A DNA stretch of 64,000 nucleotides, from contig CM114271.1 in the NCBI GenBank assembly GCA_050084515.1, positions 25,544,001-25,608,000 on the forward strand, in the 5' to 3' direction. Shown piece by piece: positions 4,381 to 62,843 of the stretch. The notes under the pieces were generated by a model. That model was given only the letters and a program-made list of their open reading frames with translations, was not told where the DNA came from and searched no databases. Each line of letters opens with the position of its first letter. Positions within the stretch are counted from its first letter, which is position 1. The position numbers were made by a program, and so were the translations under genes. Source of the DNA: Blasia pusilla. Its lineage: Eukaryota.

Positions 4381-4747
4381 TGTCATGACCATACAAATTA
4401 TGTCGTAGAGTATAGTGTGCTAGTAGAGGCCATACCTTATGTAGGGTCGTAGTGTCTAGGTAGAGATGCGGTTTCATACATAGGGTTGGGGGTTACTCAT
4501 TTGAGGGTTACTTTTCCAGTAGGGCCCACTCTTAGGTTGGAGGATAAAAAGTGGAGTGCACTCAAAGAACAGTTAGTTCTTTGAGTTGAGCATGTGCGTT
4601 GAGAGTTAGCCTTGGTAGTGAGTAGAGCTCTTGGCTATGGTGGTTCTCGCAAGCTTTGACCTGGATTCTCCCATCGTGGCGTGGGTTTGGCTCAATTTTA
4701 TGTGATTCTATACGTGTTTTATGACAGTAGGTCTTTCACGGATTTCA
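4381..4747 (+). repeat. 5' terminal repeat (segment A) of copy B, TG...CA
   Basis: Matches the reverse complements of 55532-55896, 44728-45093 and 62326-62693; homology ends at GGATTTCA; TATA-like GATAAAAA at 4543-4550. Confidence 0.92.
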
Positions 4748-4758
4748 CTCATAGAACT
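4748..4758 (+). promoter_or_regulatory. Putative self-priming primer binding site
   Basis: CTCATAGAACT (CTCAAAGAACT in copy C, 55521-55531 minus) directly abuts the LTR end and is complementary to AGTTCTTTGAG at 4575-4585 inside the LTR; no TGG tRNA-type PBS. Confidence 0.7.
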
Positions 4759-6114: not shown

Positions 6115-7335
6115 TTGGTCATCACGGAGCTGTTTGGTGGTCTAGTTGGGGACCGTGGTGCGGACAGTGGTGGTTTCACACAAAGTGGATTGAGGTATCG
6201 GCTACCTTTTCCACTTCCGACGGTTGATGAAGAGGAGGACGAGGATGTTCCAAACACCGAGTCTTCTACGTTGTTATCGAGTGTTGCAGCTCCATTGATT
6301 TGGGACATGGACGGGATATATGGGGCCATGAAGGGCCCACAACAATACTCGCGTACAGTGGGCACCATTGAGTTGGAGGACTTCATGCAGGAGTTTGATA
6401 CGTGGTGTGATATGCAGATGTTGCGGAATGCCACATTGTTTAGACCCTTCTTGGCTTGGAAGGGGTTGTTTCAACACTTGGAGGGACCACCCATAGATGA
6501 TTACCATAAGTTTAGGAAGGACCATGTTGCTGAGATTGAGGCGTGGAGACAATATTGGTCTCCAGGCTATGTGTCTATCACCCATGGTGGTATTGGTAGT
6601 AGTGCTCCTACTATGCCAGCCAGCCCGACGTTGAGTGTTACGAGTACGAGCCGGAGTGGGGGTACTAGTGGAGATACCAGTGGGGGTACTAGTGCCCCAC
6701 CATCGTTCAGCCCGGTTGCAGAGTTCTTCAAGAGGTTGAAGAAGAATTATCAGGGAGTGAAGACAGAGAAGTTGAGGAGTCTTCATGAATTTGAGCGAAA
6801 GATTGGTGAGAGTCTTCGTGAGGCATACACTCGTATGCGACGCTTGATTTCAGTTACCCAGGGTGTGACTGAGGCTCATGCAGTCTATTTTTGGTATGCG
6901 ATCTTGGACAAAGAGTTGCGCCGCAGGGTACGTGATGCTACTCTTATGAGTGATGATTCACCCACATTGACCCATGTGTTTGCTCTATCTGAGAAGATTG
7001 AGCTTAACATGGTGAAGGAGAGAGTGGTGATATCCGCATTCAAGAGGGGATACAACTACTACTTCGTGTTCAAAGAGCCCACCTCACAGTCTCGTAGTAG
7101 TGGTGGTGGTAGTAGTAGTGGGAGAGTCGGGGGATACACACGACCTCGAGTCAAGTCCTAGAGGACACTTGCGCAGAGACCATTCCCTTCATTTTGCCCC
7201 TGTGGAGCAGGACATTCATGTTGGACAGGACAATCATGTTAGGAAGTTTTGTCCCCAAGAGGATGGGAGACAAACTTTGGAGGATGGGCCTCAGTCGACC
7301 CCAACTCAATGTGATCATTGCGGGAGACCAGGTCT
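6115..7335 (+). pseudogene. gag of copy B
   Basis: 348-aa ORF with retrotransposon gag-like core (FERKIGESLREAYTRMRRL), followed by zinc-knuckle remnants (CDHCGRPG). Confidence 0.8.
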
Positions 7336-7386
7336 GCTAGTTGAAATACAAGAGACTTAGCTTGTGTATTTCAGCTAGCCGCCACG

Positions 7387-8000
7387 TTGTGTGAACGTGG
7401 GGGTGCTACTGCTACACGTGCTGAGGTGGATGAGGGTGTTGCGGTGGAGCGACCCTCTATGTCAGGTGTAGCATTGAGTACCATTGCTACTTGGCAGGCA
7501 GCAGCGACGAAGATGGATGTATTACCAGCCCGGACATCCATTGATCGTGAGAGGCTTACGCCTGATGTATATATGTTGGACAACCGGAGTGGGATATTCC
7601 GATTGGTGAGTCCTACAGGACTGGTGTATAGACCAGATAGAGTTTTGTTAGACTCTGGTGCCCAACCTTTGATGTTGGGAAAGGCAGCATGTATTGGTTT
7701 GGGTATTCGTAAGTCAGAGCTTGAGCCTTGCCCATTCCTGATTCAAACATCACTTGGAGGAGCCAATGATAGGTCTCAATTCATGACACGTGAGAAGTTT
7801 TATGTACAGTTGAGACCAGATCATGCAACTGATAGCTCCCGGTTCGGAGTACCTGCAGTGGTCACATCAGCCGAGTCGTATGATGTACTAGTTGGAGGAG
7901 CGATGTGTACCCGATGGGTTTCGAGATGGATTCGGTGAGACAACGTCTTATAGACCTGTTTGGCAGTCCGGGGATGGACGCATGAGCCAAGTTCATGTGA
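7387..8000 (+). pseudogene. Aspartic protease region of copy B
   Basis: VLLDSGAQPLML active-site motif and YDVLVGG C-terminal motif. Confidence 0.85.
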
Positions 8001-8349
8001 GATTTATTTATGGGGCTCGACCAAGAGGGTCTTCCCCAACGTTGTTAGCATCTGTGGCTAGTTTTAGTGGAGTAGTCACTTGGCAAGGAGAGTTTTTGGA
8101 GGGTAATGTTTCTGCTTTGGATTCTCATGTGCATGAGGAGGTAGAGGAGGTCCCTAGTTTTGAAAGAGTGGCATCCTCATCATTGGATGTGCCACTTTGG
8201 GTTCAGGCGGTGCACTACGGCATGAGGCTGATCGTCTAGTGCATGAGGCTTGGTGTGAGGCTGTTATACCTCACGAGGAAGAGGAGGCCCCACGGCGGAC
8301 TCCTACTTCTGGTCCACTTGGGTAATCCCCTTTGGATACTACTCCCATT

Positions 8350-9330
8350 GTATGGCAGTATCCGCCGGAGGGCATTTGTGTATTAGATCTCTTTGGTGGG
8401 ATTAGCACTTTGGTTTGATCTGATGTTGCGGCCGGTATTCTGGCGGAAATACGTGTATGTGGAGCGAGATGAGATGGCCCAGAGAGTCTCATGCCGACAT
8501 ATTGGTCAGTTAATGGGGAGATATCCTGAGTTGTTGCCGCCATCAGCTATTTGTGGGTACCAACGTGCTTTCCCGTCCCACATTGCATTGTTGGGGGCGC
8601 AGGACCTTGAGAGGGTTGGTCCTGTGGATTTGGTGATTGTTGGATGGCCACGTCAGGGTCATACACGTGTTGGTCGTGGATTACACGACCCGGTCTTGAT
8701 TTTTTTGGGAGATGTTACGTGTGTTACGACATCTTCACGTTCATCAAGCACGTGCTCCAGCTTACATTCTGGAGAATGTTCCATTGTTGGGTGACACTCA
8801 TACCCAGATGATGGCGAGTGTTCATGAGGTGCGTTCTTGGATTGGACCAGTGGTGTTGTTGGATGTAGCGCGAGTTGGCTTGAGTGCACATCGTCCACGC
8901 TTGTGGTGGACAAACTTGTTGCCTAGGGAGGTTCTACGTCGAGCATATGATGCAGTGCAGTGAGATCCTTGCCTTACAGTGGATAATATCTTGGATACTA
9001 GGCGACTTTCTCATGTGGTGAGGGTTATTGATCGATCACCCATGGCAGTGGTGAACCGTGTGGGCCAACCTAAGATGGCACTACCCACATTTGTGAGTTT
9101 TCCCTCGTCACATGCATACATGGAAGGTGGTCCCGGGCTTATATAGGATTCTCATGTGCGACAGTTGATGGAGCCTAGCGCTGATGAAAGAGAGCGTGCG
9201 ATGGGATTTGCTACTGGTATGACAGCGGTTGCTTCCATTTTGAGGCTTCACTACGTCATGTGTTGGGTCAGGCCATGGACCTGAATTGTTTGATTTGGAT
9301 TTTGAGTCTTGGTATGGCCGAGCAGCGTCG
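8350..9330 (+). pseudogene. DNMT3-like methyltransferase domain of copy B (frameshifts; catalytic PC changed to PR)
   Basis: ICVLDLFGGIST, YVYVE, VDLVIVGWPRQG, YILENVP, AHRPRLWWTNL, ERERAMGFATG, HVLGQAMD. Confidence 0.9.
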
Positions 9331-9429
9331 ACTTCGGACTATGTCTGTGGGTCTAGCTAAGGGTGTACCATCTTGTGAGGGGGTTGCGTAGCAGCCAATG
9401 GCATCGTCCTCTCCCTCTAGTATGCCAAT

Positions 9430-11538
9430 GGAGGAGACTTGGGAGCCACTACTTGGGCCCAAGCTTACGGGAGGTGAGAAACGACGCTTGACACAGTTCC
9501 TACGTGCTTCTAAGAGTTGTTTTGCCTTTAGCATGAAGGAGTTGGGTGCTCTGGTTGGATCCGGTATGGATTGATTTGGCTAGTGATACGCCAATCTTTG
9601 GTCGTCCCTACTGATATAGTGATATGGAGAGGGTCCTGATTCAGAGTAGGACGTTGGACCTTTTGGAGGCTGGATTAGTGGAGTTGTCGCATGGAGAGTA
9701 TGCATCAGCCATTGTCATGCCTGCTAAAAAGGATATGTATGGCAACTACACGGATAGGCGGATGTGTGGAGATTACCGTCCTATCAATCAGCAGACCAAG
9801 GCCGATAGGTATGCCATGCCTACACCTGAGGAGATCTTTGATGTGTTGGGACAGACAAAGATTTTTAGTACTTTGGATCTTCGGGCAAGATACCATCAGT
9901 TGCCAATTCGAGAGAGTGACAAGGCCAAGACAACATTTTGGGATGTCAACTCTCATGGCAAGGATTGTTTGTACCAGTGGAAATTCTTACCTTTTGTGTT
10001 GAAGAATATACCCGCCAAGTTTCAGAGAGTGATGGACAAGATCCTAGCAGGTTTGGATTTTGTTTGGTGTTACATTGATGATATCTTGGTGTTCAGTAAC
10101 ACGGTGGATGAGCATCAGATACATTTGCAGATTGTGTTTGAGAGGTTGAAAGCTCATGGTCTACGTTTGTATCCAAGAAAGTGTAAGTTCTTCCATGAGG
10201 ATGTTGAGTACTTGGGTCATGTGATCTATCCAGGTGGTTTGGGAGTTCAGCAAGCAAAGGTGGACGCTATTGCACTTATTCCTCGTCATGTAGATGTGAG
10301 TAGAGTTCGGGCATTCATGGGATTGGTGAACTACTATCGGAGGTATGTGAAGGGATTTAGTGCTATGGCAAAGCCTTTGAACCAATTGTTGAAATCAGAT
10401 CAAGAGTGGCACTGGGGAGATGATCAAGAGAGAACTTTTGTGCAGCTCAAGGCCCAGTTGGTGGCGGCGCCTATCTTGAGGAGACCTATCAGAGGGCGCC
10501 CATTTTAGTCACACACTGATTGGATTAGGTTGGGACTTGGAGCGGTATTAACACAACATGATGATGAGCACATGGAGTTTGTGGTGGCCTATGCAAGTCG
10601 TTCGAATAATGCAGCGGAGTCGCGCTATAGTTCATATGAGGGGGAGTGCTTGGCAGTAGTGTGGGTTGTGGCACACTTTAGGTGTTACTTGTTTGGCAAA
10701 TAGTTTACCCTTGTTATTGATCACCAGCCGCTCAAGTGGTTGATGGAGTTTGATAATCTTACAGGGAAGATTGCACGATGGGCTCTTATCTTACAGGAGT
10801 ATGACTTCGAGGTGGTACATAGACCTGGAGTTGCCAACCTTGATGCTGATGGGTTGAGTAGGAACCCATGTACTAGCCAAGAGGATGCAACTGGGGCTGG
10901 ATGGCAAGGCAAGGTTGATGAGGAGATGGTGTCAGGTTGGCATGCATCTGCCTTTTTATGTTGGTTAGGGGTGGACTCTATTATGGAGGACCACATGACA
11001 TCTTACTCTAGTCAGAGGGTAGATGGCCAACCTTCACATCCTAAGGTTGGAGATGGTGGTACGAATCATCGTGATATTCATGATGATGCGTTGGTGTTGG
11101 AGTTCCTATGGACCAGTAGGGTGCCAGACATAGTGAGTGCCAAGGAGCAAGACCGTGTTCTTCAACGTGTTAAGAGGTATCAATTGGTGGGAACACATAT
11201 TCTCCATGTGTGGGAGGATGATAGAGTACCAGTAGTGCCGCATTTGGCTCACAGAGAGCGCATTGTGCGACATGCCCATGAGGAGTTGGGACATTTTGGG
11301 GTAAAGCGTATGTATAACTTACTCCTTAGTTAGTATTGGTGGCGTGGCATGCATACTCACGTGCAGCAATTGGTGTCACGTTGTATGGTTTGTGATCGGG
11401 TGAGGGCATCATTCAATGCCCCTACACCACAGTTACACCCCTTGCCTATTATGGGGTTGGGTTACCGTTGGAGTGTGGACTTTGCGGGACCGTTACCGTT
11501 GACTGTACGACATCATCGATATGTGTTGGTGATGGTGG
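9430..11538 (+). pseudogene. RT-RNase H-integrase N-terminal part of copy B
   Basis: ORFs 9624-10508 (RT), 10740-11333 (RNase H end, HAHEELGH) and 11349-11555 (CMVC, WSVDFAGP), with in-frame stops between them. Confidence 0.93.
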
Positions 11539-43576: not shown

Positions 43577-44621
43577 GAATATCTTCAGTCAAGACTGCTA
43601 CCCACTAAGGAAGTCTTTATGCCTTCAAACAGAAGCTATGCATCGATGTCAGGTCACTTACTAATTAGTGAAAACACGAGGAAGAAATTCTCCAAATAGG
43701 GATGATACTTCTGTATATATATGTGACTTGCTATTACCTATAGCCTTTGTCATTTGCACTCCTTGAGTGGGTCCTAGCCCCAACCATTGAGGTTGTCCAT
43801 ACACTTCTGGAGTGCTATTATTGAGTCCATAAAGGTATTGGCTACTTCCAAACCGATCTTGACTATTTGCCACGGCATGATAGGATCCCTCGATGTAGTT
43901 GGAGAATCCACCTTCCATAGAGTCTACACATGACATATATGTCAGTGTAGTACAGACACATTACACAACCTTCCCACCATCATCCTATGATGTATAATGA
44001 AAGAGAAATTTGAGATGGAAATCGATAGATTCGTACTATTCCACCCTTGCCCCGTTGGACAATATCCACCGTATAATGAACTTGGCTTAGAGTTCTCTGC
44101 ATAGGGTCCATCTCTACCGCCTTGAGACATGCTTGCCTGTCCCTCTCCACTATATTGTATATCCACTTGCTGTTTGAGAGGAATACGACTTTCAGGTACA
44201 CGCTCGGGTGCAACATCCCTTGCCCAAGTAGCTTGCCCCCCAACAGTCCGTTTCTGCCAATGCAATGCAACCCACCAATTAGAGACAATTTCTTTCAAAT
44301 GGCACTAACCTTGAAACACAATTGTATACACACATCTTGTCTAATTGATTAGAAAAATAACCTGCTTCTTCTTCCCCCCAATAGTTGATGGACAGGGCTC
44401 CTTAGGTGCCGGAAGCTCATCTCAGCCTGATTGATCCTCTTCACCAAAATGTACAACAAACTCTGGATCACAAGCGGGACATTCTTCACCTCCAATCTGA
44501 GCATCAATGTCATCAGTAGATTCTACCATCGCTCCCAATACCTTTCCAAGCAATTGAGAGCTCCTCCGCTTCGGTCCAAGATGGAGAGGCTCCCTCTTTG
44601 CAGGTCGTGGGGCATGTACTT

Positions 44622-45202
44622 TGTCGTGCGAATCCACATCGTCATACAACATACATCGCTGACATACCATACGCACATACATACATAACATAGACGAGAG
44701 TATCCACAAACGCAAGTGTACCACAACTGAAATCCGTGAAAGACCTTCTGTCATAAAACACGTTTATAATCACATACAATCAAGCCAAACCCACTCCACA
44801 ATGGAAGAATCTAGGTCGAAGCTTGGGAAACACCATAGCCAAGAGCTCACGCACTACCAAGGCTAACTCCCCAACGCAAGCAGGCTCAACTCAAAGAATC
44901 GATCGTTCTTTGAGGGCAAGCCACCTTATATCCTCCAACCTAAGAGCGGGCCCCTCTTGGGAAAGTCACCCCAAGTGAGTAACCCCAACCCTATGTATGG
45001 AACCGCATCTCTACCAAGCCACTACGGTCCTACATAAGGAATGGCCTCTACCAGCACACCATACTCTACAACATAATCCGTATGGTCATGACAGCTGTCG
45101 TGCGAATCCACATCGTCATACAACATACATGGCTGACATACCATACGCACATACATACATAACATAGACGAGAGTATCCACAAACGCAAGTGTACCACAA
45201 CT
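44622..45202 (-). repeat. Composite 3' terminal repeat B1-gc-A2-gt-B2 of copy C
   Basis: 107-bp block 44622-44728 repeated almost exactly at 45096-45202 on both sides of segment A; palindrome GACAGCTGTC at 45090-45099. Confidence 0.93.
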
Positions 45203-45211
45203 CGCCCCCTA
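45201..45211 (-). promoter_or_regulatory. Putative polypurine tract
   Basis: Minus strand reads TAGGGGGCGAG-T-TGTGGTAC, immediately before B1. Confidence 0.65.
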
Positions 45212-45362
45212 GCGGCGGTTAGGTCCTCTAACTCCCAGGTAGCCCTATACATCTACTACATGGTATACACCTTCTTGGGTGCCCGAATCAGAAGGCCGGG
45301 TGCTAGGTTGCCCCATCGTTAGTCGCACATCTGTAATCCATATCATGCAGAGATCAAGTCAT

Positions 45363-46612
45363 CTACCTCTCATAAGTACATCGAGGACAAACCCACCTTC
45401 CAGTAGGAACAACATCCAAACGTGGAGTCAAACACATCATATGCCAACCCTTAGAACACCGATCACACACCAACATACGGGTTGCGTTACCAGCAGACCC
45501 ACACAACATGCACCTCAAGCTAGCACGTATCATGGCTAAGCTTGGGTCAACAATACCATCCACATTTGGAAGATGACATGGCGCACAATTACGCACATGG
45601 TCCTTCCAAACAACTCCATCACGACCCTCCAACATGAGAACTCCAGAAGCTAACACCTCACGCACTCGTAAAATAGTGCGGCCTGCCGTCACATCCAACG
45701 TTGTCGGTGCAATCTGCTGCAAATAGACATAGTCCCCCCACATGGAACCTACGAATCGATGGTCGATAACCTCCACCCCGAATGGTTGCATACCGCAACG
45801 TATCCCTGTGTTGAGCAATGGCAAGATTCTCAAAGGTCATTGGCATAACTCTCCGAAAGAGCTCCGCCCTGAGAACACACCCTCATCCACATCTCTGGGT
45901 CATCAAGGTTCACCACCTCACTAGACTCGGCAATTCTGCTTGGCAAGTCTGGATCTCGGCCGTATAACAGAAAATAAGGTGAGAAGGAAGCCAAGGATGC
46001 TTGGAGATTGAACCTATACCCCATGGCTAACCATGGCAACTTAATATCCCAGTCTCCAAGATGCCCCTTCTGTAGGCCATACTTGCGCAATGCCCTTTTC
46101 ACCGTCTGAACCACACGCTCAGCCAAACCATCCGCCCTCTGGATGATCGAGCGTGGTCCGATGATCAATCAACGCCTTGTCACACAAGACCGAAACTCAC
46201 CCTGAAACTCAGTATCTGGTCGGTCAACACTTGGTGGTGCACCAAAATGACTAAGCACTCTATCCAGAAACGCATACGCCGTTCCCTCACTTGCCTTGTC
46301 CGGTAATGCCACCAACTCAATCCACTTGGAGAAGTGCTCCACCATCACCAACACATAACGATGATGTCGTACAATCAACGGTAACGGTCCCGCAAAGTCC
46401 ACACTCCAACGGTAACCCAACCCCATAATAGGCAAGGGGTGTAATTGTGGTGTAGGGGCATTAAATGATGCCCTCACCCGGTCACAAACCATACAACGTG
46501 ACACCAATTGCTGCACCTGAGTATGCATGCCACGCCACCAATACTGGCCAAGGAGTAAGCTATACGTACGCTTTACCCCAAAATGTCCCAACTCCTCATG
46601 GGCATGTCGCAC
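45363..46612 (-). pseudogene. Integrase with C-terminal PHD finger (copy C)
   Basis: HAHEELGH..CMVC, WSVDFAGP, GLAERVVQTVK, SPYFLLYGR, then CMLCGSAGNATRMLVCDRCSKGWHMMCLTPRLDVVPTGRWVCPRC (C4HC3). Confidence 0.92.
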
Positions 46613-46741
46613 TGTCGCTCTCTCTCAGCCAAATGTGGCACTACTCGTACTCTACCATCCTCCCACACGCGGAGAATATGTGTTCCCTCAATCGATACCT
46701 CTTAGCACGTTGAAGAACACGGTCTCGCTCCTTGGTACTCA

Positions 46742-49700
46742 CTATGCCGGCACCCCTCTTGGTCCGTAGGAACTCCAACACCAACGCATCATCATGAACA
46801 TCACGCTGATCCGTACCACCATCTCCAACCTTAGGATCTCAAGGTGGCCATCTACCCCTCGACTAGAGTAAGATATCATGTGGTCCTCCATACTAGAGTC
46901 CACCCTAACCAACATAAAAGGCGGATGCATGCCAACCTGGCACCATCTCCTCATCAACCTCACCATGCCATCTAGCCCGGTTGTATCCTCTTGGCTAGTA
47001 CATGGGTTCCTACTCAACCCATCAAGCATCAAGGTTGGCAACTCCAGGTCTATGTACCACCGGAAGTCATACTCTGTAAGATAAGAGCCCACCGTGCAAG
47101 CTTCCATGTAAGCTTGTCCGACTCCATCAACCACTTGAGCGGTGGTGATCGGTAACAAGGGTAAAGCGTGTGCCAAACAAGTAACACCTAAAGTGTGCCC
47201 ACCCACACTCTTGCCAAGCACTCTCCCTCATATGAACTATAGCGACTCCATTTGCATTATTCGAACGACTTGCATAGGCCACCACAAACTCCATGTGCTC
47301 ATCATCATGTTGTGTCAACACCGCTCCAAGTCCCAACCTACTCCAATCAGTGTGTGACTGAAGTGGGCGCCCTCTGATAGGTCTCCTCAAGATAGGCGCC
47401 GCCACCAAATGGGCCTTGAGCTGCACAAAAGTTCTCTCTTGATCATCTCCCCAGTGCCACTCTTGATCTGATTTCAACAATTGGTTCAAAGGTTTGCCAT
47501 AGCACTAAATCCCTTCACATACATCCGATAGTAGTTCACCAATCCCATGAATGCCCGAACTTTACTCACATCTACGGGACGAGGAATAAGTGCAATAGCG
47601 TCCACCTTTGCTTGCTGAACTCCCAAACCACATGGATAGATCACATGACCCAAGTACTCAACATCCTCATGGAAGAACTTACACTTTCCTCGATACAAAC
47701 GTAGACCATGAGCTTTCAACCTCTCAAACACAATCTGCAAATATATCTGATGCTCATCCACCGTGTTACTGAACACCAAGATATCATCAATGTAACACCA
47801 AACAAAATCCAAACCTGCTAGGATCTTGTCCATCACTCTCTGAAACTTGGCAGGTATATTCTTCAACCCAAAGGGTAAGAATTTCCACTGGTACAAACAA
47901 TCCTTGCCATGAGAGTTGACACCCCAAAATGTTGTCTTGGCCTTGTCACTCTCTCGAATTGGCAACTGATGGTATCTTGCCCGAAGATCCAAAGTACTAA
48001 AAATCTTTGTCTGTCCCAACACATCAAAGATCTCCTCAGGTGTAGGCATGGCATACCTATCGGCCTTGGTCTGCTGATTGATAGGACGGTAATCTCCACA
48101 CATCCGCCTATCCGTGTAGTTGCCATACATATCCTTTTTAGCAGGCATGACAATGGCTGATGCATACTCTCCATGCGACAACTCCACTAATCCAGCCTCC
48201 AAAAGATCCAACGTCCTACTCTGAATCAGGACCCTCTCCATATCACTATATCAGTAGGGACGACCAAAGATTGGCGTATCACTAGCCAAATCAATCCGTA
48301 TACCGGATCCAACCAGAGCACCCAACTCCTTCATGCTAAAGGCAAAACAACTCCAAGAAGCACGTAGGAACTGTGTCAAGTGTCGTTTCTCACCTCCCGT
48401 AAGCTTGGGCCCAAGTAGTGGCTCCCAAGTCTCCTCCATTGGCATACTAGAGGGAGAGGACGATGCCATTGGCTGCTACGCAACCCCCTCACAAGATGGT
48501 ACACCCTTAGCTAGTCCGAAGTCGACGCTGCTCGGCCATACCAAGACTCAAAATCCAAATCAAACAATTCAGGTCCATGGCCTGACCCAACACATGACGT
48601 AGTGAAGCCTCAGAAATGGAAGCAACCGCTGTCACACCAGTAGCAAATCCCATCGCACGCTCTCTTTCATCAGCGCTAGGCTCCATCAACTATCGCACAT
48701 GAGAATCCTATATAAGCCCGGGACCACCTTCCATGTATGCATGTGACGAGGGAAAACTCACAAATGTGGGTAGTATATAGCGCGACTCCGCAGCATTATT
48801 CGAACGACTTGCATAGGCCACCACAAACTCCATGTGCTCATCATCATGTTGTGTCAACACCGCTCCAAGTCCCAACCTACTCCAATCAGTGTGTAACTGA
48901 AATGGGCGCCCTCTGATAGGTCTCCTCAAGATAGGCGCCGCCACCAACTGGGCCTTGAGCTGCATAAAAGTTCTCTCTTGATCATCTCCCCAGTGCCACT
49001 CTTGATCTGATTTCAAAAATTGGTTCAAAGGCTTTGCCATAGCACTAAATCCCTTCACATACCTCCGATAGTAGTTCTCCAATCCCATGAATGCTCGAAC
49101 TCTACTCACATCTATCGGACGCGGAATAAGTGCAATAGCCTCCACCTTTGCTTGCTGAACTCCCAAACCACATGGATAGATCACATGACCCAAGTACTCA
49201 ACATCCTCATGGAAGAACTTACACTTTCCTGGATGCAAACGTAGACCATGAGCTTTCAACCGCTCAAACACCATCTGCAAATGTATCTGATGCTCCTCCA
49301 CCGTGTTACTGAACACCAAGATATCATCAAATTAACACCGAACAAAATCCAACCCTGCTAGGATCCTGTCCATCACTCTTTGAAACTCGGTAGGTGCATT
49401 CTTCAACCCAAAGGGTAAGAATTTCCACTGGTACAAACAATCCTTGCCATGAGAGTTGATACCCCAAAATGTTGTCTTGGCCTTGTCACTCTCCCGAATC
49501 GGCAATTGATGGTATCCTGCCCGAAGATCAAAGTCTTGAAAATCTTTTGCCTGTCCCACACATCAAAGATCTCTCGGTGTAGGCATGGCATACCTATCGG
49601 CCTTGGTTTGCCGATTGATAGGACGGTAATCTCCACACATCCGCCTATCCGTGTAGTTGCCATGCATATCCTTTTTAGCATGAGGCATGGCGATGGGCGA

Positions 49701-49985
49701 TGCATACTCTCCATGCGACAACTCCACTAATCCAGCCTCCAAAAGGTCCAACGTCCTACTCGAATCAAGTCCTCTCCATATCACTATATCGGTAGGGACG
49801 ACGGAAGATTGGCGTATCACTAGCCAAATCAATCCGTATACCGGGTCCAACCAGAGAACCCAACTCCTTCATGCTAAAGGCAAAACAACTCCTATAAGCA
49901 CGTAGGAACTGTGTCAAGCGTCGTTTCTCACCTCCCGTAAGCTTGGGCCCAAGTAATGGCTCCCAAGTCTCCTCCATTGGCACAC
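46742..49985 (-). pseudogene. RT-RNase H of copy C, present twice in tandem
   Basis: First RT/RNase H at about 49985-48775; second copy, starting with the DNMT C-terminus, from 48774 through RT ORF 47486-48241 and RNase H 47127-47489. Confidence 0.9.
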
Positions 49986-50239
49986 TAGAGGGAGAGGACG
50001 ATGCTATTGGCTGCTACGCAACCCCCTCACAAGATGGTACACCATTAGCTACACCATCATCGAGCAAATAACTCCTCCACAGCAAAGATGAGCAACCAAC
50101 TCCACATGCCCAGCCATTACATCCCATCTACTCCAAGGATGCAAAATACTACTCTCCTCGCCCCCAGCCGATGCCTCTACCGTCCCGGTAGACATCGAGC
50201 TCATTACAAGGGGTGGAAGACCCACAGACATAGTCCGAA

Positions 50240-51235
50240 GTCGACGTTGCTCGGCCATACCTAGACTCAAAATCCAAATCAAACAATTCAGGTCCATGGC
50301 CTGACCCAACACATGACGTCGTGAAGCCTCGTAAATAGAAGCAACATTTGTCAAACTCAGAGCAAATCCCATCGCACGCTCTCTCTCATCAGCGTTAGGC
50401 TCCACCAAGTGTCGCACATGAGAATCCCATACAAGCCCCGGACCACCTTCCCTATAGGCATGTGACGAGGGAAAACTCACAAATGTGGGTAGTGCCATCC
50501 TAGGCTGGCCCACACGGTTCACCACTGCCATGGGTGACCGATCAATAACCCTCACCACTTGGGAAAGTCGCCCATTATCCAAGATACTATCCACTGTAAG
50601 GCGAGGATCCCGCTGCACTGCATCATATGCTCGACGTAGAACCTCCCTAGGCAACAAGTTTTTCCACCACAAGCGTGGACGATGTGCACGCGAGCCAACT
50701 TGCGCTGCATCCAACAACACCGCTGGTCCAATCCAAGAGCGCACCTCATGAACACTCGCCATCATCCGGGTCCGAGTGTCACCCAACAATGGAACATTCT
50801 CCATAATGTAAGCTAGAGCACGTGCCTGATGAACCTGAAGATGTCGTAACATCCGTAACATCTCTTAAAACAATCGAGACCTAGGGTCATGTAATCCCTC
50901 ACCACGACCAGCACGTGTATGACCCTAACATGGCCATCCAGCAATCACCAAATCCACAGGACCAATTCTCTCAAGGTCATGCGCCCCCAACAATGCAATG
51001 TGTGATGGTAAAGCACGCTGGTACCCACGAATAGCTGATGGCGGCAAAAACTCAGGATATCTCCGCATCAACTAACCAATATGTCGGGATGAGACTCTGG
51101 GCCGTCTCAACTCGCTCCACATACACGTATCTCCGCACAGGAATACCGGCCTGCAACACTGCAGCCAAACCAGTGCTAATCCCACCAAAGAGATCTAACA
51201 CACAAATGCCCTCTGGCGGATACTACCATACAATG
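50240..51235 (-). pseudogene. DNMT3-like methyltransferase domain of copy C
   Basis: ICVLDLFGGISTGLAAVLQAG, VDLVIAGWPC*G, and ORF 50049-50861 with YIMENVP, AHRPRLWWKNL, ERERAMGF, SRRHVLGQAMD. Confidence 0.92.
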
Positions 51236-51599
51236 GGTGTAGTATCTAAAGGGGATAACCCAACTGGGCCAGAAGTAGGAGTCCGCCGTGGGGCCTCCTC
51301 TTCCTCGTGAGGTATAACCTCACACCAAGCCTCTGCACTAGGCGATCGCCTCTGCCATAGTGCACCGCTGAACTCCAAAGTGGCACATCCAACGATGAGG
51401 ATGCCCTTTGTTGCAAAAAAATAGGGAACTCCTCTTCCTCCTCATGCGCAGGAGAATCCATAGCGAAACATTGACCTCCAAAAGTCTCTGGCCAAGTGAC
51501 TACTCCACTAAAACCACCCACAGATGCTAACACTATTGGGGAAGACCCTCTTGGTCGAGCCCGTAAATAAATCTCACAGAACTTGGCTCATACGTCCAT

Positions 51600-54080
51600 C
51601 CCGGATCGCCAACCTGGTCTATAAGACATTTGTCTCGACCCAAGAATCCATCCGAAAACCCATCGGGTACAACATCGTCCTCCAACTAGTACATCATACG
51701 ACTCGGCTGATGTGACTACTGCAGATACTCCCAACCGGGAGCTATCAGTCGCATGATCTAGTCTCAACTGTATACAGAAAACTTCTCCGTGTCATGAATT
51801 GAGACCTATCATTGGCTCCTCCAAGTGATGTTTGAATCTGGAATGGGCAAGGCTCAAGCTCTGACCTCCGAATACCCAAACCAATACATGCCGCCTTTCC
51901 CAACATCAAAGGTTGGGCACCAGAGTCTAACAAGACTCTATCTGGTCTATACACCTGTCTTGTAGGACTCACCAATCGGAAGATCCCACTCCGGTTGTCC
52001 AACATACATACACCAGGTGTAAGCCTCTCACGATCAATGGCTGGCCGGGCTGGTAATGCATCCATCTTCGCCGCTGCTGCCTGCCAAGTAGCACCGGGTA
52101 CTCAATGCTACTCTGACATAGAGGGTCGCTCCACCGCAACACCCTCATCCACCTCAACACGTGTAGCAGTAACACCCCCACGTTCACACAACGTGGTTGC
52201 TAACTGAAATACATGAGCTAAGTCAACTCCTAAAGCCATCAGCTCCGTGGCCGAAAACAATGGGGATCCCAACACTGAAGTTGCCATCCGCATATTGCAT
52301 TGATCCGCATCCGTGTCTACTACACGCGATGTAGATGCCTCGATCCCCCCACATTGCCCGCTCAATAGGCTGCGAGGAACCATGGATGGAGTCCTAAGCA
52401 CCTCGAGACAACAAGAATGATGGGAAGCCTAGCGCCTCCCACCTCACCCCTATGTGGGTCCAACTCCACAAGAGCACCACGTGGCTCGACGCTCGAGTGG
52501 CTCCTCTCAGAATCGGTGATGCCTCAACCTCAGGCCGCACTCGCCATATAAGAGAGATCATCCCTCCATAAGAGGTGGAAGCCCTTGCTCCCGAACCTGA
52601 TCTATCTTTGGATACCGACCATAGTAGCCAACTTCTCTGCTCCAATGCTCAATCCTGAAAGCCATAGCCGACTGTCGTAGTGGTAGGGGTAGCCACCGTA
52701 GGCTCTCCAACCACTGGTCCACCTCTACCACCCCTACCACCTCGGCCTCTCGGAGCTACTCCACCATGGCCACGGCCTGATCTCAACTGTGGATGAAGAT
52801 CAAAGCAACGCTCTCGAGGATGACCTAGTCTCCCGCAATGATCACACCTGAGTTGGGGCCTCACTGAGGCCCATCCTCCAAAGTCCGTCTCCCATCCTCT
52901 TGGGGACAAAACTTCCTAACATGATCACCTCCACATGTCCAACATGATCGCCCTTGCTGCAGGGCAGCAAATGAAGGCAATGGTCTTTGCACAAATGTCC
53001 CTCTAGGACTTGACGAGGTCGCGTGTACCCCCACGACTCCCACTACTACTACCACCACCACTACTACGAGGCGTGAGGTGGGGCTTTGAACACGAGAAGT
53101 AGTAGTTGTATCCCCTACTTGAATGCGGATGTCACCACTCTCTCCTTCACCATGTTAAGCTCAATCTTCTCGAGATAGAGCAAACACATGGGTCAATGTG
53201 GGTGAATCATCACTCATAAGAGTAGCATCACGCACCCTACGGCGCAAATCTCTCATCCAAGATCCCATACCAAAACTGGACTGCCTGATCCTCAGTCACA
53301 CCCTGGGTAACTAAAATCAAGCGTCGCATATACGTGTATGCCTCACGAAGACTCTCACCAGTCTTTCGCTCAAAGTCTTGAAGATTCCTCAACTTCTCCG
53401 TCTTCACTCCTTGATAGTTCTTCTTCAACCTCTTGAAGAACTCGCAATCGGGCTAAAGGATGGTGGGGCACTAGTACCCCCACTAGTACCTCCACGGTAC
53501 CCCCACTCCGGCTCGTACTGCGTACCACTCAGTCGAAATTTGGCGGGCATAGTAGGAGCACTACTACCAATACCACCATGGGTGATAGACACATAGCACG
53601 GAGACCAATATTGTCTCCATGCCTCAATCTCAGCAACATGGTCCTTCCTAAACTCATGGTAATCATCCATGGGTGGTCCTTCCAAGTGCTGAAAGAACCC
53701 CTTCCAAGCCAAGAAGGGTGTAAACAACGTGGCGTTCCGCAAGATCTGCATATCACACCACGTATCAAACTCCCCGCATGAAGTCCTCCAACTCAATGGT
53801 ACCCACTGCGCACCGAGTATCGTCGTGGGCCCTTCATGGCCCCATATCCACCGTCCATGTCCCAAATCAATGGAGCTGCAACACTCGATAACAACGTAGA
53901 AGACTCGGTGTTTGGAACACCCTCGTCCTCCTCTTCATCAACCGTCGGAAGTGGAAAAGGTAGCCGATACCTAAATCCACTCCGTGTGAAACCACCACCA
54001 TCCGCACCACGGTCCCCAACCGAGACCACCCGACGACTCCGTGATGACCAACGCCGATGCCGCACCACCACCAAATTACC
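51600..54080 (-). pseudogene. gag and protease of copy C
   Basis: gag core as in copy B, knuckles CWTCGGDHVRKFC and CDHCGRLGHPRERC, an RGG-rich tract, protease VLLDSGAQPLML. Confidence 0.88.
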
Positions 54081-55531
54081 AAGTGATGTCGATGTCGCTA
54101 TACTATTCTAGCTCTACTAGCTATGGGTGTAGGCAACCTAAGTTGTCATCACCACAAGAAAGTCTCCCACAATCTACTCGTCATCCCTCCAGCCTCACTA
54201 CCGGTAGCACACATGAGTAACACTACTCTGGAAATCAGCGTCAACCCTAACAATGGGCGCGCAAGCAAGAAGCACGATGGAGGGGATCCAAACACAGGAA
54301 ATCCAACGACAACCCTCCAATCGCAAATGGAAATCAAGGTAACACAATCCACCAAACGTGGTGCCCTCTGAATCCACAAAACCCACCACACAATTCTAAC
54401 GCAATAGCTACTCCGCCGCGGGTCGATGACGTGCTAGTCGAACTCGCAGCACCTGAAAATATCACCTGCATGGAGAGGCTACACAGTACTATGCGCTAGA
54501 GGTACATCAACCAAAAACCTGAGATGCATAAAGTGCCTAAGACCTCTCCGAGCTACAACAGTCTGTACACTGGCATAGTTAAGAACTCAGCAGTTAAGCG
54601 TCCTCCAGGCAGAATAGCCCAAAGATGGGTGACCAGTTATGCAAAACTCAAATCCTAAATCCTGCAAAAATTGCCTCACGCCCAAGCAAGCAAGCTTGCT
54701 TGCTTGCTCCTTGTCCTTACTCCGCCTCTCACGCCCACTCGCCCCGAGCTACCACGAGTTGCCTCGAAGCCTCAAAACGCCGAGACATGCCCCTATCGCC
54801 CCGTTCGCCATGCTTCGCTAAGGAGAGAGGTCCAACCAGGGCGCCCCCAACGGGATAGGCGTCTCCAAAAATGAACGAGTCACCAATCAACCAGCCCCTC
54901 CGATCCTCTGTCCACCATAGCCAGACCTTGAGCTAGTCCGTGAAATTTCGATCAAAAATTACTTCACAAATACGTGACCGAAATCAAATCTATTTCAATC
55001 AGAATTCAATTGACCACCATAGCTATCTCCTTACAAAAACTCAACTACAACCGAGCTCCGTACTCCGAGCTAAAAATCAGACAAACTTGCTGTCCATACA
55101 CCTCTAGAACCGCAAATCCGGCTAAAGGCTTCCGCCAAGTTTCATGCACGAGAAATCCGCAACGCTCCACGCACTCAAGCAGATAGCTTCACATGAGATC
55201 ACAATACAAGTAGTAATAGGAACCTCTCACCCGATCTGGATGATTCAACAGAGCTTCCGCACTCCAAGCTCTCCACATCAGAAAACTGTCGAACACGACC
55301 AGAATCTTCAATGCTTGATAACTTCCAACTCCCTTGACGAAATCCGGCGATCTACAGCGCGTTGGAAAGCTCTCAGCAAGGCGCTTCTTTCCCAACCAAC
55401 TGCGCACCAGATTCACACCTCCAACATAGGCCACAAGCCACGAACATCCACGGCTGAGTACACAATCAGCCCTAACCAGATCCTACTGATCTACAATCGA
55501 AGCTACCATCAATCTACTCCAGTTCTTTGAG

Positions 55532-55896
55532 TGAAATCCGTGAAAGACCTACTGTCATAAAACACGTTTACAATCACATACAATCAAGCCAAACCCACTC
55601 CACAATGGGAGAATCTAGGTCGAAGCTTGCGGGAAACACCATAGCCAAGAGCTCTACTCACTACCAAGGCTAACTCCCAATAACACGCTCAACTCAAAGA
55701 ATGATCGTTCTTTGAGGGCAAGCCACCTTATATCCTCCAACCTAAGAGCGGGCCCTACTGGGAAAGTCACCCCCAAGTGAGTAACCCCCAACCCTATGTA
55801 TGGAACCGCATCTCTACCAAGCCACTACGGTCCTACATAAGGAATGGCCTCTACCAGCACACCATACTCTACGACATAATCCGTATGGTCATGACA
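55532..55896 (-). repeat. 5' terminal repeat (segment A1) of copy C
   Basis: Direct repeat of 44728-45093; minus strand TGTCATGACC...GGATTTCA. Confidence 0.93.
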
Positions 55897-56208
55897 ACTT
55901 GCTTAGAACAAGCCTCTGCGCTGCACATGAGGACGAGTTTTTCAAGAACATGAATTATGCACAATGCTTATGATTCATTCATAAAGGCCCACACCTGAGT
56001 GCTCAATATGTCAAAGCTTACGATTCAACGCCTCTCTGTTTGAGTTCTTCCGCCAGTTCCTTAAGGCGTCTGATCACATAAGCCGCGTGGGCCTCAACAG
56101 GGTCACACATTTCATTCACATTTTCCATCAAATTCCTTAAAAAAAAAAACAACCTGCATGTCCCATGAACCCATGCCGAATGACATAACACACCACACAA
56201 ACATTTCT

Positions 56209-61707: not shown

Positions 61708-62843
61708 CTAAAGTGTGGGATCAACTTTGTGATGGTGGCAATAGAACCACCACCTATCCTCACCACATGCACCATGGTCATATATAATCCGATCGCATGC
61801 ATAACCCTTGCTCATAGCCTTCTTCAAGCAAGTCCAATGCCATGCAGTGGGGCACCTAGGACAATAGACCATGTCCTCCCACAACTCCTCATCATGCTTA
61901 TGGCATTCTGGGTAATAATGCATGGGGAAAGACTCCACTCCAGTAGGCAAACAAGTAAAGCAAAAAAACCTCACACAAAAGGTATATGGGCACTTTCTCA
62001 CACGAAATCCCATAATCCTCGCTCTCTGCAAAACTCCCATCTAGACCACAATTGGCACACCTGGCCATTTTCCTCACACAATCTTGGCACAACCAGCTCC
62101 CCTTGTGGTTTGGTAGGAGGTTGACCCCTGGGCAAGAGTTCTCTATAGCCCCCGCTGATTTTGCAGTTGCATGGAAGTGTCTGGCACAAGGCCCGTCGCA
62201 AACAACCAGGTCTTTCCCATGTTGTGCGAATCCACATCGTCATACAACATACATCGTTGACATACCATACTCACATACATATATATCATAGACGAGAGCA
62301 TCCACAAACACAAGTGTACCACAACTGAAATCCGTGAAAGACCTACTTTCATAAAACACGTATAGAATCACATACAATCGAGCCAAACCCATTACACGAT
62401 GGGAGAATCCAGGTCAAAGCTTGCGGGAACCACCATAGCCAAGAGCTCTACTCACTATCAAGGCTAACTACCAAGGCAATAGGCTCAACTCAAAGAACTA
62501 ACTGTTCTTTGAGTGCACTCCACACTATATCCTCCAACCTAAGAGCGGGCCCTACTGGAAAAGTCACCCTCAACTCAGTAAACCCCAACCCTATGTATGA
62601 AACCGCATCTCTACCTAGACACTACGGCCCTACATAAGGTATGGCCTCTATTAGCATACTATACTCTACGACATAATCCGTATGGTCATGATACCCATCA
62701 TCACAGATTGCACAAATGTGGGTTGCCTTTTGCAAAACCTGGAGTGCACTATATGGCGCATAAGTGCTCATCTTGAGGGTTTTCTTGGCCTCGTATTTCG
62801 GGCGCGCCATCCTTGTACTCGTACATTTTGAGACAAAAGACAA
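61708..62843 (-). pseudogene. EDM2/NSD-type multi-PHD finger ORF interrupted by solo D
   Basis: Removing 62220-62693 and one TSD gives HICAICDDGKDLVVCDGPCARHFHAT..WLCQDCVRKMARCANCG, then RKCPYTFCVRFFCFTCL..CPRCPTAWHWTCL after a frameshift. Confidence 0.8.
62220..62693 (-). mobile_element. Solo terminal repeat D (A-gt-B) of the Gypsy-DNMT family
   Basis: Matches 44622-45093 end to end; 4-bp TSD CCCA at 62216-62219 and 62694-62697. Confidence 0.95.

Follow-up and report, generated by a model that had tools for sequence, protein, structure and literature searches.

A palindromic CA-GC-TG junction within the split repeats of degenerate Ty3/gypsy retrotransposons suggests insertion from an end-joined DNA copy

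Results

Degenerate Ty3/gypsy elements with a methyltransferase region and a PHD finger

The window, i.e., the whole stretch of 64,000 nucleotides analyzed, contains element C, which is complete at both ends, parts of the elements A and B, and D, a lone unit of the repeats found in C (Table 1). Using Pfam, we found RT, RNaseH and an integrase with H2C2 and rve, in this order, in element C, element B, element A and the intact ORF2 of L001, which together with L002 represents relatives from another assembly with 64% protein identity to the window family. L001 ORF1 contains a DNA_methylase domain (PF00145; 6.8e-12), and the corresponding regions of C (Table 1) and element A (2540-3529) align to it at 40-55%; the degenerate ORFs of the window gave no Pfam match to a DNA methyltransferase (DNMT). 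Similarly, Pfam matched neither gag nor protease in the 5' 4 kb of C, where these were placed only by tblastn to L001 ORF1. RT homologs of the window element include proteins from Closterium and from Klebsormidium, the latter with 38-47% RT identity. Pfam matched no chromodomain in C or L001, and Rfam returned nothing at gathering thresholds anywhere in the window. Judged from their sequences, the elements are degenerate Ty3/gypsy retrotransposons of the order gag-protease-DNMT-RT-RNaseH-integrase-PHD, belonging to a liverwort/charophyte lineage. Element A is interrupted at 4380/4381 by element B, and neither terminus of element A lies in the window; the 3' part of element B is deleted after 11538. 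Based on tblastx, the rest of element A and the 3' part of element B are absent from the window, which holds no extra termini.

Table 1. Features of element C and of the related elements in the window
Feature	Position	Strand	Description	Evidence
A1	44622..44728	-	Terminal copy of segment A (107 bp), sense 3' end of C; ends ...CGCACGACA at 44622	BLAST, TSD
B1	44728..45093	-	3' copy of segment B (366 bp); TATA-like box, hairpin, predicted R-U5	BLAST
A2	45096..45202	-	Internal copy of segment A (107 bp); sense start adjoins polypurine-like tract
B2	55532..55896	-	5'-terminal copy of segment B (365 bp); sense start TGTCATGACC at 55896
Junction	45084..45105		Plus strand reads GGTCATGACAGCTGTCGTGCGA = GGTCATGACA-GC-TGTCGTGCGA	Direct read
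10-bp palindrome	45090-45099		GACAGCTGTC; CA 45092-93, GC 45094-95, TG 45096-97
Polypurine-tract-like run	45203..45212	-	Sense CTAGGGGGCG then A; directly upstream of A2
Candidate self-priming primer-binding site	55522..55531	-	Sense CTCAAAGAAC; directly after 5' copy of segment B
TSD of C, left copy	44618..44621		ACTT
TSD of C, right copy	55897..55900		ACTT
Degenerate coding region of C	45366..52323	-		Pfam, tblastn
PHD finger (C)	45366-45836	-		Pfam
Integrase (C)	46172-46624	-	H2C2 and rve	Pfam
RNaseH (C)	47130-47504	-		Pfam
RT (C)	47489-48250	-		Pfam
Duplicated RT/RNaseH pieces (C)	48711-49562	-
DNA-methyltransferase-like region (C)	50235-51255	-		tblastn to L001 ORF1
Protease-region-like (C)	51592-52323	-		tblastn to L001 ORF1
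D	62220..62693	-	Lone B-A unit (474 bp), same B|A joint as C; CCCA/CCCA at 62216-19 and 62694-97
Element B	4381..11538	+	Independent copy, opposite orientation; starts exactly at the segment B terminus TGTCATGACC
Element A	4..4380	-	Relative, ~70% identical (DNMT-RT-RNaseH-integrase part)	tblastx

Split repeats and target site duplications

Read in the sense direction, the repeats of C are split and arranged B-internal-A-GC-B-A. B2 is the sole repeat at the 5' end, with no segment A after it, while A is present twice at the 3' end. Based on BLAST, B1 recurs at 55532-55896 (94%), 62326-62691 (89%) and 4381-4747 (86%, inverted), and A2 at 44622-44728 (106/107) and 62220-62326 (92.5%); a sensitive BLAST of both ends of C returned no further copy of either segment in the window. 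Element B also begins with segment B (4381-4747), lacks A at its 5' end and continues with the same non-A leader as C (95% column identity). Because the A-less 5' end is present in both C and element B, the layout has passed through transposition; and since the U5 is the same in both LTRs after canonical reverse transcription, such an end is not a canonical LTR product. Two identical LTRs, as in Ty3/gypsy elements, are not found in C, since segment B is the only repeat shared by the two ends; TG...CA termini (TGTCA...GACA) and target site duplications (TSDs) of 4-5 bp (ACTT and CCCA), which are also characteristic of Ty3/gypsy elements, are found.

The integrated ends are the start of segment B (TGTCA...) and the end of segment A (...CACGACA). 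The first is used by three independent insertions (C, D and element B) and the second by two (C and D). The termini read TGTCGTGCGA (44622) and ...GGTCATGACA (55896) in C, TGTTGTGCGA (62220) and ...GGTCATGATA (62693) in D, and TGTCATGACC (4381) in element B. Both of the elements with two ends in the window have perfect 4-bp TSDs exactly at these termini (C, ACTT/ACTT; D, CCCA/CCCA), and a survey gives 4 or 5 bp as the norm for the target duplication in plants (PMC6317226). Upon shifting the TSD boundaries by -3 to +3, we found no other 4-bp match for C and one, a trivial slide (+1,+1), for D. In C, a TSD is present for the whole element only, and its sub-parts are flanked by mismatched sequences (CAGC vs ACTT, and ACTT vs GCTG); the possibility that C represents two adjacent insertions was ruled out, as these sub-parts have no TSDs of their own.

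The alignment of B1 with B2 has 28 columns that differ, comprising 19 substitutions among 361 aligned positions as well as indels; each of the 21 differences that could be polarized is a derived state of B1, and none is a derived state of B2. A1 is identical to A2 except at 1 of 107 positions; at the rate of segment B, one or fewer differences would be found with P = 0.024. This pattern is not predicted by simple equal decay of copies from one event and counts against the reading of the locus that we favor below; gene conversion could account for it.

The junction abuts both integration termini

The sequence-only reading had proposed that a palindromic ATGACA-GC-TGTCGT site inside the repeat marks the true integration ends. 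Upon re-reading 45084-45105, both this sequence and the 10-bp palindrome at its center proved real. The left side of the junction is the end of B1 and, after the GC spacer, the right side is the start of A2; on the sense (minus) strand of C it reads ...CGCACGACA-GC-TGTCATGACC... All of the outer termini that had been named as sharing the half-sites (44622, 55896, 62220, 62693 and 4381) coincide with them, and the ends of D are, as noted there, slightly mutated, by one transition each. The proposed head-to-head arrangement also holds: the halves are the TG...CA termini carrying the 4-bp target duplications, with the terminal inverted repeat TGTCRYG, and in the junction both are abutted. By itself, the palindrome is not beyond chance, as the window holds one exact match and one match with one mismatch compared with 1.80 expected (at most one mismatch), and 56 of 100 shuffles gave at least two matches; its significance comes from its context. 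The junction is present in a single copy in the window, and none of the six outer termini examined (two of C, two of D, the 5' end of element B and the 3' end of L002) carries the GC spacer.

We considered whether a circle and its target recombine conservatively and site-specifically with the junction as core site, as in DIRS-, Ngaro- and PAT-like elements, the recombinase being encoded elsewhere or provided by the host. A short palindrome around a central spacer would fit such a site, and the layout is that of split-direct-repeat elements with a tyrosine recombinase (PMC4157794, PMC5890265). However, Phage_integrase, the tyrosine recombinase domain, matched none of the 39 ORFs with 60 aa or more on the minus strand of C and none of the intact L001 ORFs; the encoded enzyme is instead a DDE integrase, in agreement with the retroviral-type integrase invoked by the sequence-only reading. 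With recombination inside a core, the core would be retained at each of the two joints and no duplication would arise. The outer termini lack GC and the TSDs are of unrelated sequence (ACTT and CCCA), which contradicts this explanation, and we regard it as scarcely credible.

Predicted reverse-transcription landmarks bound a different unit

Directly upstream of A2 is a polypurine-tract-like run in the context ...TAGGGGGCG-A|GTTGTGG, and the 5' copy of segment B is directly followed by a candidate primer-binding site for self-priming (Table 1). B2 contains a TATA box at about 55732-55726, and the transcript start, predicted from this TATA box only, is at about 55702. Nine of the 10 nt in CTCAAAGAAC are complementary to 55693-55701 inside B2 (nt 196-204 of segment B), 31 nt after the TATA; 28 of 2000 shuffles gave a match as good, which provides modest support. 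The site is mutated in element B (CTCATAGAAC, 4748-4757), where the best perfect match is 6 nt and was equalled in 1045 of 2000 shuffles. In both the predicted MFE and centroid structures, the predicted 5' end of the C RNA pairs with the primer site. We prefer self-priming over a tRNA-type primer site because no TGG directly follows segment B, the nearest being at +11 and +24. ARAGORN identified no tRNA genes in the window.

Thus placed, the polypurine tract and the primer site appear to bound an A-GC-B unit rather than the integrated termini: the ends marked by these landmarks and those marked by the TSDs are 107 and 366 bp apart. From these positions, the LTR resulting from ordinary reverse transcription would have the composition A-GC-B. 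The integrated copy would be a circular permutation of this reverse-transcription product, and integration would use the palindrome inside the LTR. The joint between B1 and A1 is seamless (sense ...GGATTTCA|GTTGTGG...), is identical in C and D, and connects the end of segment B at the primer site to the start of segment A at the polypurine tract with a 1-nt overlap; this is where the two cDNA ends set by reverse transcription are predicted to meet. D is a solo unit left by B/B recombination or else a mini-fragment excised at two palindromes.

The junction is conserved in a related family

Seven loci were fetched, of which L003-L007 (35-43% matches over 50-65 integrase-core residues in bacterial contigs) serve as negatives only. 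L002 reads polypurine tract, A (2311-2416), GC, B (2419-2778), A (2779-2884) and unrelated flank, and its two A copies are identical (106/106). In L001, polypurine tract-A-GC-B continues into a primer site of 12 nt that is complementary to nt 183-194 of segment B, 29 nt after the TATA, a match that was equalled in 0 of 2000 shuffles. The sequence of this primer site differs from that in the window, i.e., it covaries, and the predicted L001 fold pairs the predicted transcript start with the primer site. The counterpart of the polypurine tract, TAGGGGGGGCA, is located at the same place upstream of A in L001 and L002. The ends of L002 as defined by reverse transcription (CTTGAGGG... and ...CTCTC) are not TG/CA, whereas the halves of the palindrome are.

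The longest block common to the A-GC-B units of the two families is the 14-mer CACGACAGCTGTCA (nt 101 vs nt 100), and a shared block of 14 was reached in 1 of 1000 shuffles. It is present in two of the seven fetched loci, L001 and L002, and absent from the other five. The conservation of palindrome and 2-bp spacer, which the sequence-only reading had suggested checking in related families, is accordingly borne out in both true relatives (2/2), where the 14-mer and GC are identical; a junction that varies among copies, or termini that do not coincide with it, which had been named as evidence against the site, was not what we found, as the same spacer is present in a family 64% identical in protein. 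In the L001/L002 family, the integrated end recovered is the 3' one, with A-GC-B-A read at the 3' end of L002. The assembly path of L001 is circular with a 127-nt end overlap and may reflect repeats collapsed during assembly, not a true circle.

These data also bear on the possibility that A-B-A in C is a local accident, such as a solo B-A insertion or recombination, an unequal crossover or an assembly artifact, and the palindrome functionless. That the 10-bp palindrome alone is within chance expectation, that the window has only one copy of the junction, and that B1 holds all 21 polarizable differences, as if it had a different history, would be in line with such an origin. However, the whole of C has the TSD ACTT/ACTT while its sub-parts have none of their own, the A-less 5' end was found independently in element B, and DIRS-like repeats have been published for Gypsy-Dnmt3 of Klebsormidium (PMC5890265). 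Moreover, the same A-GC-B-A with identical A copies in L002 and the same junction in L001 contradict a local origin, which we consider highly improbable.

Discussion

A probable inherited internal circle junction

In retroviruses and typical LTR retrotransposons, the molecule that is integrated is a linear cDNA whose ends are set by the primer site and the polypurine tract, and 2-LTR circles are regarded as dead ends. Our comparison of termini, landmarks and junction suggests that, in the family described here, the DNA copy that is inserted is end-joined and probably circular, instead of the linear one that is usual. Specifically, we think it fairly probable that the site is an inherited internal circle junction, which the DDE integrase would cut after CA on both strands in end-joined cDNA. 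According to this model, the RNA would extend from a TATA-driven start in the 5' copy of segment B to a poly(A) site in the 3' copy, with A-GC-B (5' part) as U3. Tf1-like self-primed reverse transcription would give a cDNA with A-GC-B on each side of the internal region, and its ends would be joined as in a 2-LTR circle, which would account for the seamless B|A joint of D and of the 3' end of C. The integrase would bind the symmetric CA-GC-TG of one LTR and cut after CA on each strand; the cut would leave 2-nt 5' overhangs, which would then be lost, and the B...A-GC-B-A molecule would be inserted with a 4-bp stagger. The second palindrome would be left uncut and inherited, so that the layout perpetuates itself. 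Because the GC spacer would be carried in the RNA, it would be inherited rather than acquired from flanking DNA. Two palindromes are present in a circle of the 2-LTR type, and a wrong cut, or a 1-LTR circle, would give the non-replicative forms B-A-GC-B-internal-A or B-internal-A; neither was seen among the only three insertions available in the window.

Alternatively, a split-repeat element may insert with neither circle nor internal cut. In this scenario, non-canonical reverse transcription, with extra plus-strand priming at the junction and template switches between cDNA ends, would make linear DNA ending TGTCA.../...CACGACA, which the integrase would insert in the retroviral way; the internal junction would merely store both end sequences, as proposed for the internal junction regions of DIRS-type elements. 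The termini do look like ordinary integrase substrates (TG...CA, inverted repeat, 4-bp TSD), and the junction holds exactly the parts missing from the predicted RNA. DIRS-1 is described to amplify via linear single-stranded cDNA (PMC7192593). However, no purine-rich primer precedes the start of segment B, the preceding sequence being ...GATTCGCACGACAGC, and the terminal A is not templated at the right end by canonical steps, because the only A of the RNA lies upstream of B. A template switch could be favored in L001 and L002, in which CTTGA occurs both in the primer site and at the start of A; in the window family, there is no such microhomology (CTCAAAG at the primer site vs GTTGTGG at the start of A). 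Finally, a strictly conserved symmetric CA-GC-TG core fits a site for protein binding or cleavage rather than a mere information store. We therefore regard the linear route as rather unlikely.

Relation to known elements

With regard to retroviral 2-LTR circles, the proposed internal circle junction resembles their palindrome in that a symmetric CA-spacer-TG is formed from two abutted ends recognized by an integrase. In vitro, tetramers of HIV-1 integrase cut the palindromic junction of 2-LTR circles in a restriction-like manner (PMC1905944). The retroviral palindrome arises only after end-joining of the cDNA, at the LTR-LTR boundary, whereas that of the window family is encoded inside the LTR, 107 nt from the LTR start, and inherited via the RNA; moreover, unlike in retroviruses, the predicted end-joining joint (B|A) is a separate and non-palindromic site. 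A study on PFV reportedly described the same cleavage of a palindromic junction by the spumaretrovirus integrase (PMC1180852). For retroviral integrases, cleavage of a circle junction has so far been known from in vitro work or as a side activity; if the integrase of the family described here cuts its site in end-joined cDNA, this would be the main route in a natural system.

The sequence-only reading had also drawn a comparison to IS3-family transposons. In this family (IS911-type), the ends are abutted around a short spacer and a DDE enzyme cuts the 3' ends; the junction is transient and the spacer comes from flanking DNA. While the abutted ends and the short spacer are shared, the comparison is an analogy only, as the spacer in the window family would be inherited via RNA and not acquired from flanking DNA. 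In addition, IS3 elements are bacterial DNA transposons, whereas the window family consists of eukaryotic RT-encoding retroelements with a retroviral-type integrase and a GC that is fixed in two families.

The concept of an internal circle junction is said to go back to the work of Cappello et al. in 1985 on DIRS-1, and split-direct-repeat elements with a tyrosine recombinase are not known to make a target duplication. PAT, Toc, kangaroo, Ngaro and VIPER are described as A1-internal-B1-A2-B2, with an internal junction that reproduces the abutted termini (PMC4157794). Split direct repeats and an internal junction matching the termini are thus common to the window family and DIRS/PAT/Ngaro-type elements; however, the latter, including Toc, kangaroo, VIPER and DIRS-1, encode a tyrosine recombinase, while the window family has a DDE integrase, TG...CA ends and 4-bp duplications. 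If our model is correct, it would explain how split direct repeats come about in elements that lack a tyrosine recombinase.

The closest description that we found is that of KnitGypsy-Dnmt3 from Klebsormidium nitens (de Mendoza et al. 2018), for which a figure legend notes DIRS-like repeats arranged A-coding-B-A-B (PMC5890265). Like the window family, this element has a Gypsy-type pol and a cytosine DNA methyltransferase in its polyprotein (PMC5890265), and its type of arrangement is found in C and at the 3' end of L002. The likeness is one of description, the link by sequence being only via the Klebsormidium proteins with 38-47% RT identity. The window family differs in its liverwort-like host, its degenerate copies and its C-terminal PHD finger; the main text on KnitGypsy-Dnmt3 does not contain the term PHD, nor does it address termini, target duplications, a palindromic junction, a primer site or the integration route (PMC5890265). 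Besides this legend, the literature searched contained no integrase-bearing split-repeat element. DGLT-A and Skipper of Dictyostelium were considered as precedents and rejected, as they are described with ordinary LTRs. DIRS-like repeats in Gypsy-Dnmt3 elements are already known (PMC5890265), and the att-site detail appears to be unpublished, judging from the literature searched.

In their predicted priming, the elements would be similar to Tf1/sushi-like elements (surveyed in PMC6317226), in which a site next to U5 complements about the first 11 nt of the transcript: a tRNA-type TGG is lacking, and the candidate site after the LTR complements the predicted first 9-12 nt of the transcript. The candidate self-primer is kept by covariation in two families, with 9 nt in C and 12 nt in L001 at offset 0. 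The likeness concerns this priming feature; Tf1-type elements have ordinary LTRs, whereas the window lineage has a PHD finger and split repeats.

Implications of the model

A further-reaching version of the model is that the streptophyte Gypsy-DNMT-PHD lineage consists of obligate circle-integrating retroelements, whose integrase would ignore the linear cDNA ends and act like a restriction enzyme on the CA-GC-TG att site in end-joined cDNA. This is possible, although we lean slightly against it. If true, the lineage would be a natural intermediate of LTR retrotransposons, DIRS-type elements, pararetroviruses and IS3-like DNA transposons, and short B-A units like D would be excised and inserted DNA mini-fragments rather than solo LTRs. 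The apparently intact L001 opens the question to bench testing. For annotation, the model would provide a rule for a lineage whose limits are misplaced by standard LTR finders, which would match up the B copies alone and leave out the terminal A. Under the obligate circle-integrating version, the end-joined cDNA may also be transcribed as an episome.

The palindrome lies where integration ends abut

BLAST of the junction region against the window delimited two repeat segments, A and B, whose copies in the retroelement copies C, D and element B are listed in the table; segment B is distinct from element B. As the sequence-only reading had claimed, the junction consists of the end of B1, GC, and the start of A2. 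By itself, the palindrome at this site does not stand out: the window holds two matches to it when up to one mismatch is tolerated (expectation 1.80), a number equalled in 56 of 100 shuffles. Its meaning comes from the sequences that meet there.

Table. Coordinates of repeat segments, junction and related features
Feature	Position	Remarks
A1, segment A copy in C (107 bp)	44622-44728	
A2, segment A copy in C	45096-45202	106/107 identical to A1
Segment A copy in D	62220-62326	
B1, segment B copy in C (segment B ~366 bp)	44728-45093	
B2, segment B copy in C	55532-55896	94%
Segment B copy in D	62326-62691	
Segment B copy in element B	4381-4747	Inverted
Junction	45084-45105	+ strand sequence, GGTCATGACAGCTGTCGTGCGA
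Perfect 10-bp palindrome GACAGCTGTC	45090-45099	CA 45092-93, GC 45094-95, TG 45096-97
Element A	4-4380	~70% identical relative; broken at 4380/4381 by element B
L002 first A	2311-2416	
L002 GC	2417-18	
L002 B	2419-2778	
L002 second A	2779-2884	106/106 identical to first A
Second conserved R/U5 block	Window sense B nt 392-411 (C 3' copy); L001 B nt 410-429	

ACTT is duplicated on the two sides of element C (44622-55896), and CCCA on those of D, a 474-bp unit (62220-62693). At the ends of C and D, a duplication of 4 bp fits and one of 3, 5 or 6 bp does not; when the boundaries are moved by −3 to +3, 4 bp match again in one case alone, a trivial +1/+1 slide in D. The start of element B falls exactly on TGTCATGACC (4381), adjoining unrelated sequence. 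TG...CA bounds the insertions, whose inverted repeat is TGTC(A/G)TG; as previously claimed, D carries a single transition at each end. The GC spacer is absent at all six outer termini examined. The named termini are real integration ends, and the earlier observation is confirmed: at the palindrome, the end sequences found at the termini of C, D and element B abut. Neither sub-part of C has its own duplication (45096-55896 has CAGC on one side and ACTT on the other; 44622-45093 has ACTT and GCTG), so C arrived as a single piece.

A split repeat layout in an integrase-bearing element

In the sense orientation (minus strand), C reads B2-internal-A2-GC-B1-A1, with B alone, without A, at its 5' end. 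Canonical reverse transcription gives the same U5 to both LTRs; because A is present at the 3' but not the 5' end, a C-type element cannot be a canonical product. C and element B share the non-A leader that comes after B (95% column identity), and since the two are independent insertions, the layout has passed through transposition. D consists of one B and one A, with a B|A joint identical to that of C.

The ORF fragments of C encode RT, RNaseH, integrase (H2C2 zinc domain and rve core) and, C-terminally, a PHD finger; a tyrosine-recombinase domain is absent from all 39 of its minus-strand ORFs of ≥60 aa. An A-coding-B-A-B split layout is described as typical of tyrosine-recombinase retroelements (PMC4157794). 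DIRS-like repeats with Gypsy-like domains are on record for Klebsormidium KnitGypsy-Dnmt3 (PMC5890265, Fig. 4c legend); the main text of that article does not discuss termini, duplications, junction or priming, and besides this legend we found no description of integrase-bearing split-repeat elements in the literature searched. The RT of element B had 251 protein matches at E ≤ 0.001; the top named ones come from two liverworts, Calypogeia fissa (77%) and Marchantia polymorpha (80%), with Closterium and Klebsormidium next. PHD (PF00628) is present in many of the matches, and a cytosine DNA methylase domain (PF00145) in several. Judging from these matches, the window appears to be liverwort-like nuclear DNA. 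Its elements add new members, degenerate and liverwort-like, to a lineage for which the odd repeats had been recorded before. Within the window, element A lacks its termini and element B its 3' part. C contains an internal tandem duplication of ~1.54 kb (units 47254-48774 and 48793-50493, 91-94% identical) that takes in RT, the beginning of RNaseH and some of the DNMT-like region; in element B the unit is present once.

Reverse-transcription landmarks

A polypurine-like run lies directly upstream of A2 (sense ...CTAGGGGGCG-A|GTTGTGG...). Directly after B2 lies CTCAAAGAAC; 9 of its bases complement B nt 196-204, a stretch at the predicted transcription start, 31 nt beyond a TATAAGG box. This match is short, and 28 of 2000 shuffles of B equal it; in the predicted RNA fold, the first 10 nt pair with the candidate primer site in both the MFE and centroid structures. 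The primer site of element B has one substitution (CTCATAGAAC) and failed the perfect-match test. Pairing of the predicted RNA 5' end with a site after B2 resembles the arrangement described for self-priming Tf1-type elements (PMC6317226). Based on the polypurine tract (PPT)-like run and the primer-like site, reverse transcription would define the LTR as A-GC-B, with the palindrome 107 nt inside it, in the predicted U3. The B1|A1 joint (...GGATTTCA|GTTGTGG...) joins exactly the B end at the primer site to the A start at the polypurine tract, apart from a single base that could belong to either, and from its sequence looks like a 2-LTR circle joint.

A second family conserves the palindrome

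A genome_contigs scan with an alignment of 11 relatives returned seven loci, of which two (L001 and L002) are true relatives with 64% protein identity to P0004, the first query-alignment sequence; the remaining five, in bacterial contigs, match weakly and in the integrase core. L001 and L002 share 87.5% identity across 2767 nt; both are contigs of one assembly labelled a cyanobacterial MAG, yet encode a eukaryotic retroelement. L002 (2905 bp) comprises the end of a PHD-finger ORF, the 3' untranslated region, TAGGGGGGGCA, A, GC, B, A, and unrelated AGTCC.... L001 (9285 bp) has a 127-nt end overlap (1-127 = 9159-9285), giving a circular path that may reflect a collapsed assembly; ORF1 runs unbroken across the ends. 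It has an unbroken gag-protease-DNMT ORF1, one in-frame stop (3489-3491) and an RT-RNaseH-integrase-PHD ORF2 in the same frame, which suggests read-through expression; the window copies are collinear with it, including the methyltransferase region. Its long 5' leader contains a run of ~28 A (~8150-8178).

L001 has the same PPT-A-GC-B unit as L002. Next comes CTTGACAAAGAT, perfectly complementary over 12 nt to B nt 183-194, which lie 29 nt past the TATA; none of 2000 shuffles match as well, and in the predicted leader fold the two pair (z = −3.5). The sequence of this pair is unlike that of the window pair, while position and complementarity are kept. The sequence-only reading had proposed checking conservation of the palindrome and its GC spacer, and both are conserved: CACGACAGCTGTCA is the longest block common to the A-GC-B units of both families (nt 101 versus 100), a length of 14 being reached in 1 of 1000 shuffles. 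It occurs in two of the seven scan loci and once in the window. The PPT- and primer-binding site-defined ends of L002 (CTTGAGGG... and ...CTCTC) are not TG/CA; the palindrome halves are. A second block common to both families, GATTCTTCC, one variable base and TTGTGGAGTG, lies in the predicted R/U5 of B.

Model for integration

The att-site reading passes all sequence-level tests, second-family conservation included; the cut and the circular substrate are what we infer. From the observed layout, termini, duplications, integrase and positions of the PPT-like and primer-like sites, we propose a transcript that begins in the 5' B, at a predicted start, ends in the 3' B and has A-GC-B(5' part) for its U3. 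Self-primed copying of this RNA into cDNA would make [A-GC-B]-internal-[A-GC-B], the cDNA ends would become joined, and integrase would cut one CA-GC-TG site after CA on both strands. With the 2-nt GC overhangs lost, insertion with a 4-bp stagger would give B-internal-A-GC-B-A, and the uncut palindrome would be handed on to the next RNA. HIV-1 integrase is reported to cleave a palindromic 2-LTR junction in vitro (PMC1905944). Cutting of both palindromes would release a B-A fragment of the D type; D is explained equally well as the solo product of B/B recombination.

Some observations speak against this model. The non-replicative permutations that it predicts are absent among the three insertions in the window. 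B1 and B2 differ in 28 columns; of these differences 21 can be polarised, and every one of them is derived in B1, the 3' copy, with none derived in B2, the 5' copy, while A1/A2 have a single difference in 107 positions. Gene conversion of one partner is a possible cause of this asymmetry. The main alternative, in which a non-canonical reverse-transcription route makes the linear ends directly, appears rather unlikely to us; it has neither a plausible plus-strand primer before B nor a template for the terminal A.

Other features of the window

CACTA-type DNA transposon remnants lie between C and D (57074-59100, minus strand; Transposase_21, 2e-53; DUF4218, 2e-23). Rfam at gathering thresholds gave no RNA family in the whole window. 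A minus-strand ORF (14904-15395) matches Pfam NAD-GH (PF10712, 1.5e-25). A weak RVT_1 match (24024-25034, minus strand; 1.2e-7) is probably another, unrelated retroelement; it lies in a stretch (22001-26000) of 50-55% G+C, with strong A-over-T skew at 24001-26000. A 51-bp tandem repeat of at least three units (94-100%) occupies 17255-17423. Finally, 127-nt direct repeats (20732-20858 and 22825-22951; 98%), 2093 bp apart, might bound a small terminal-repeat element.
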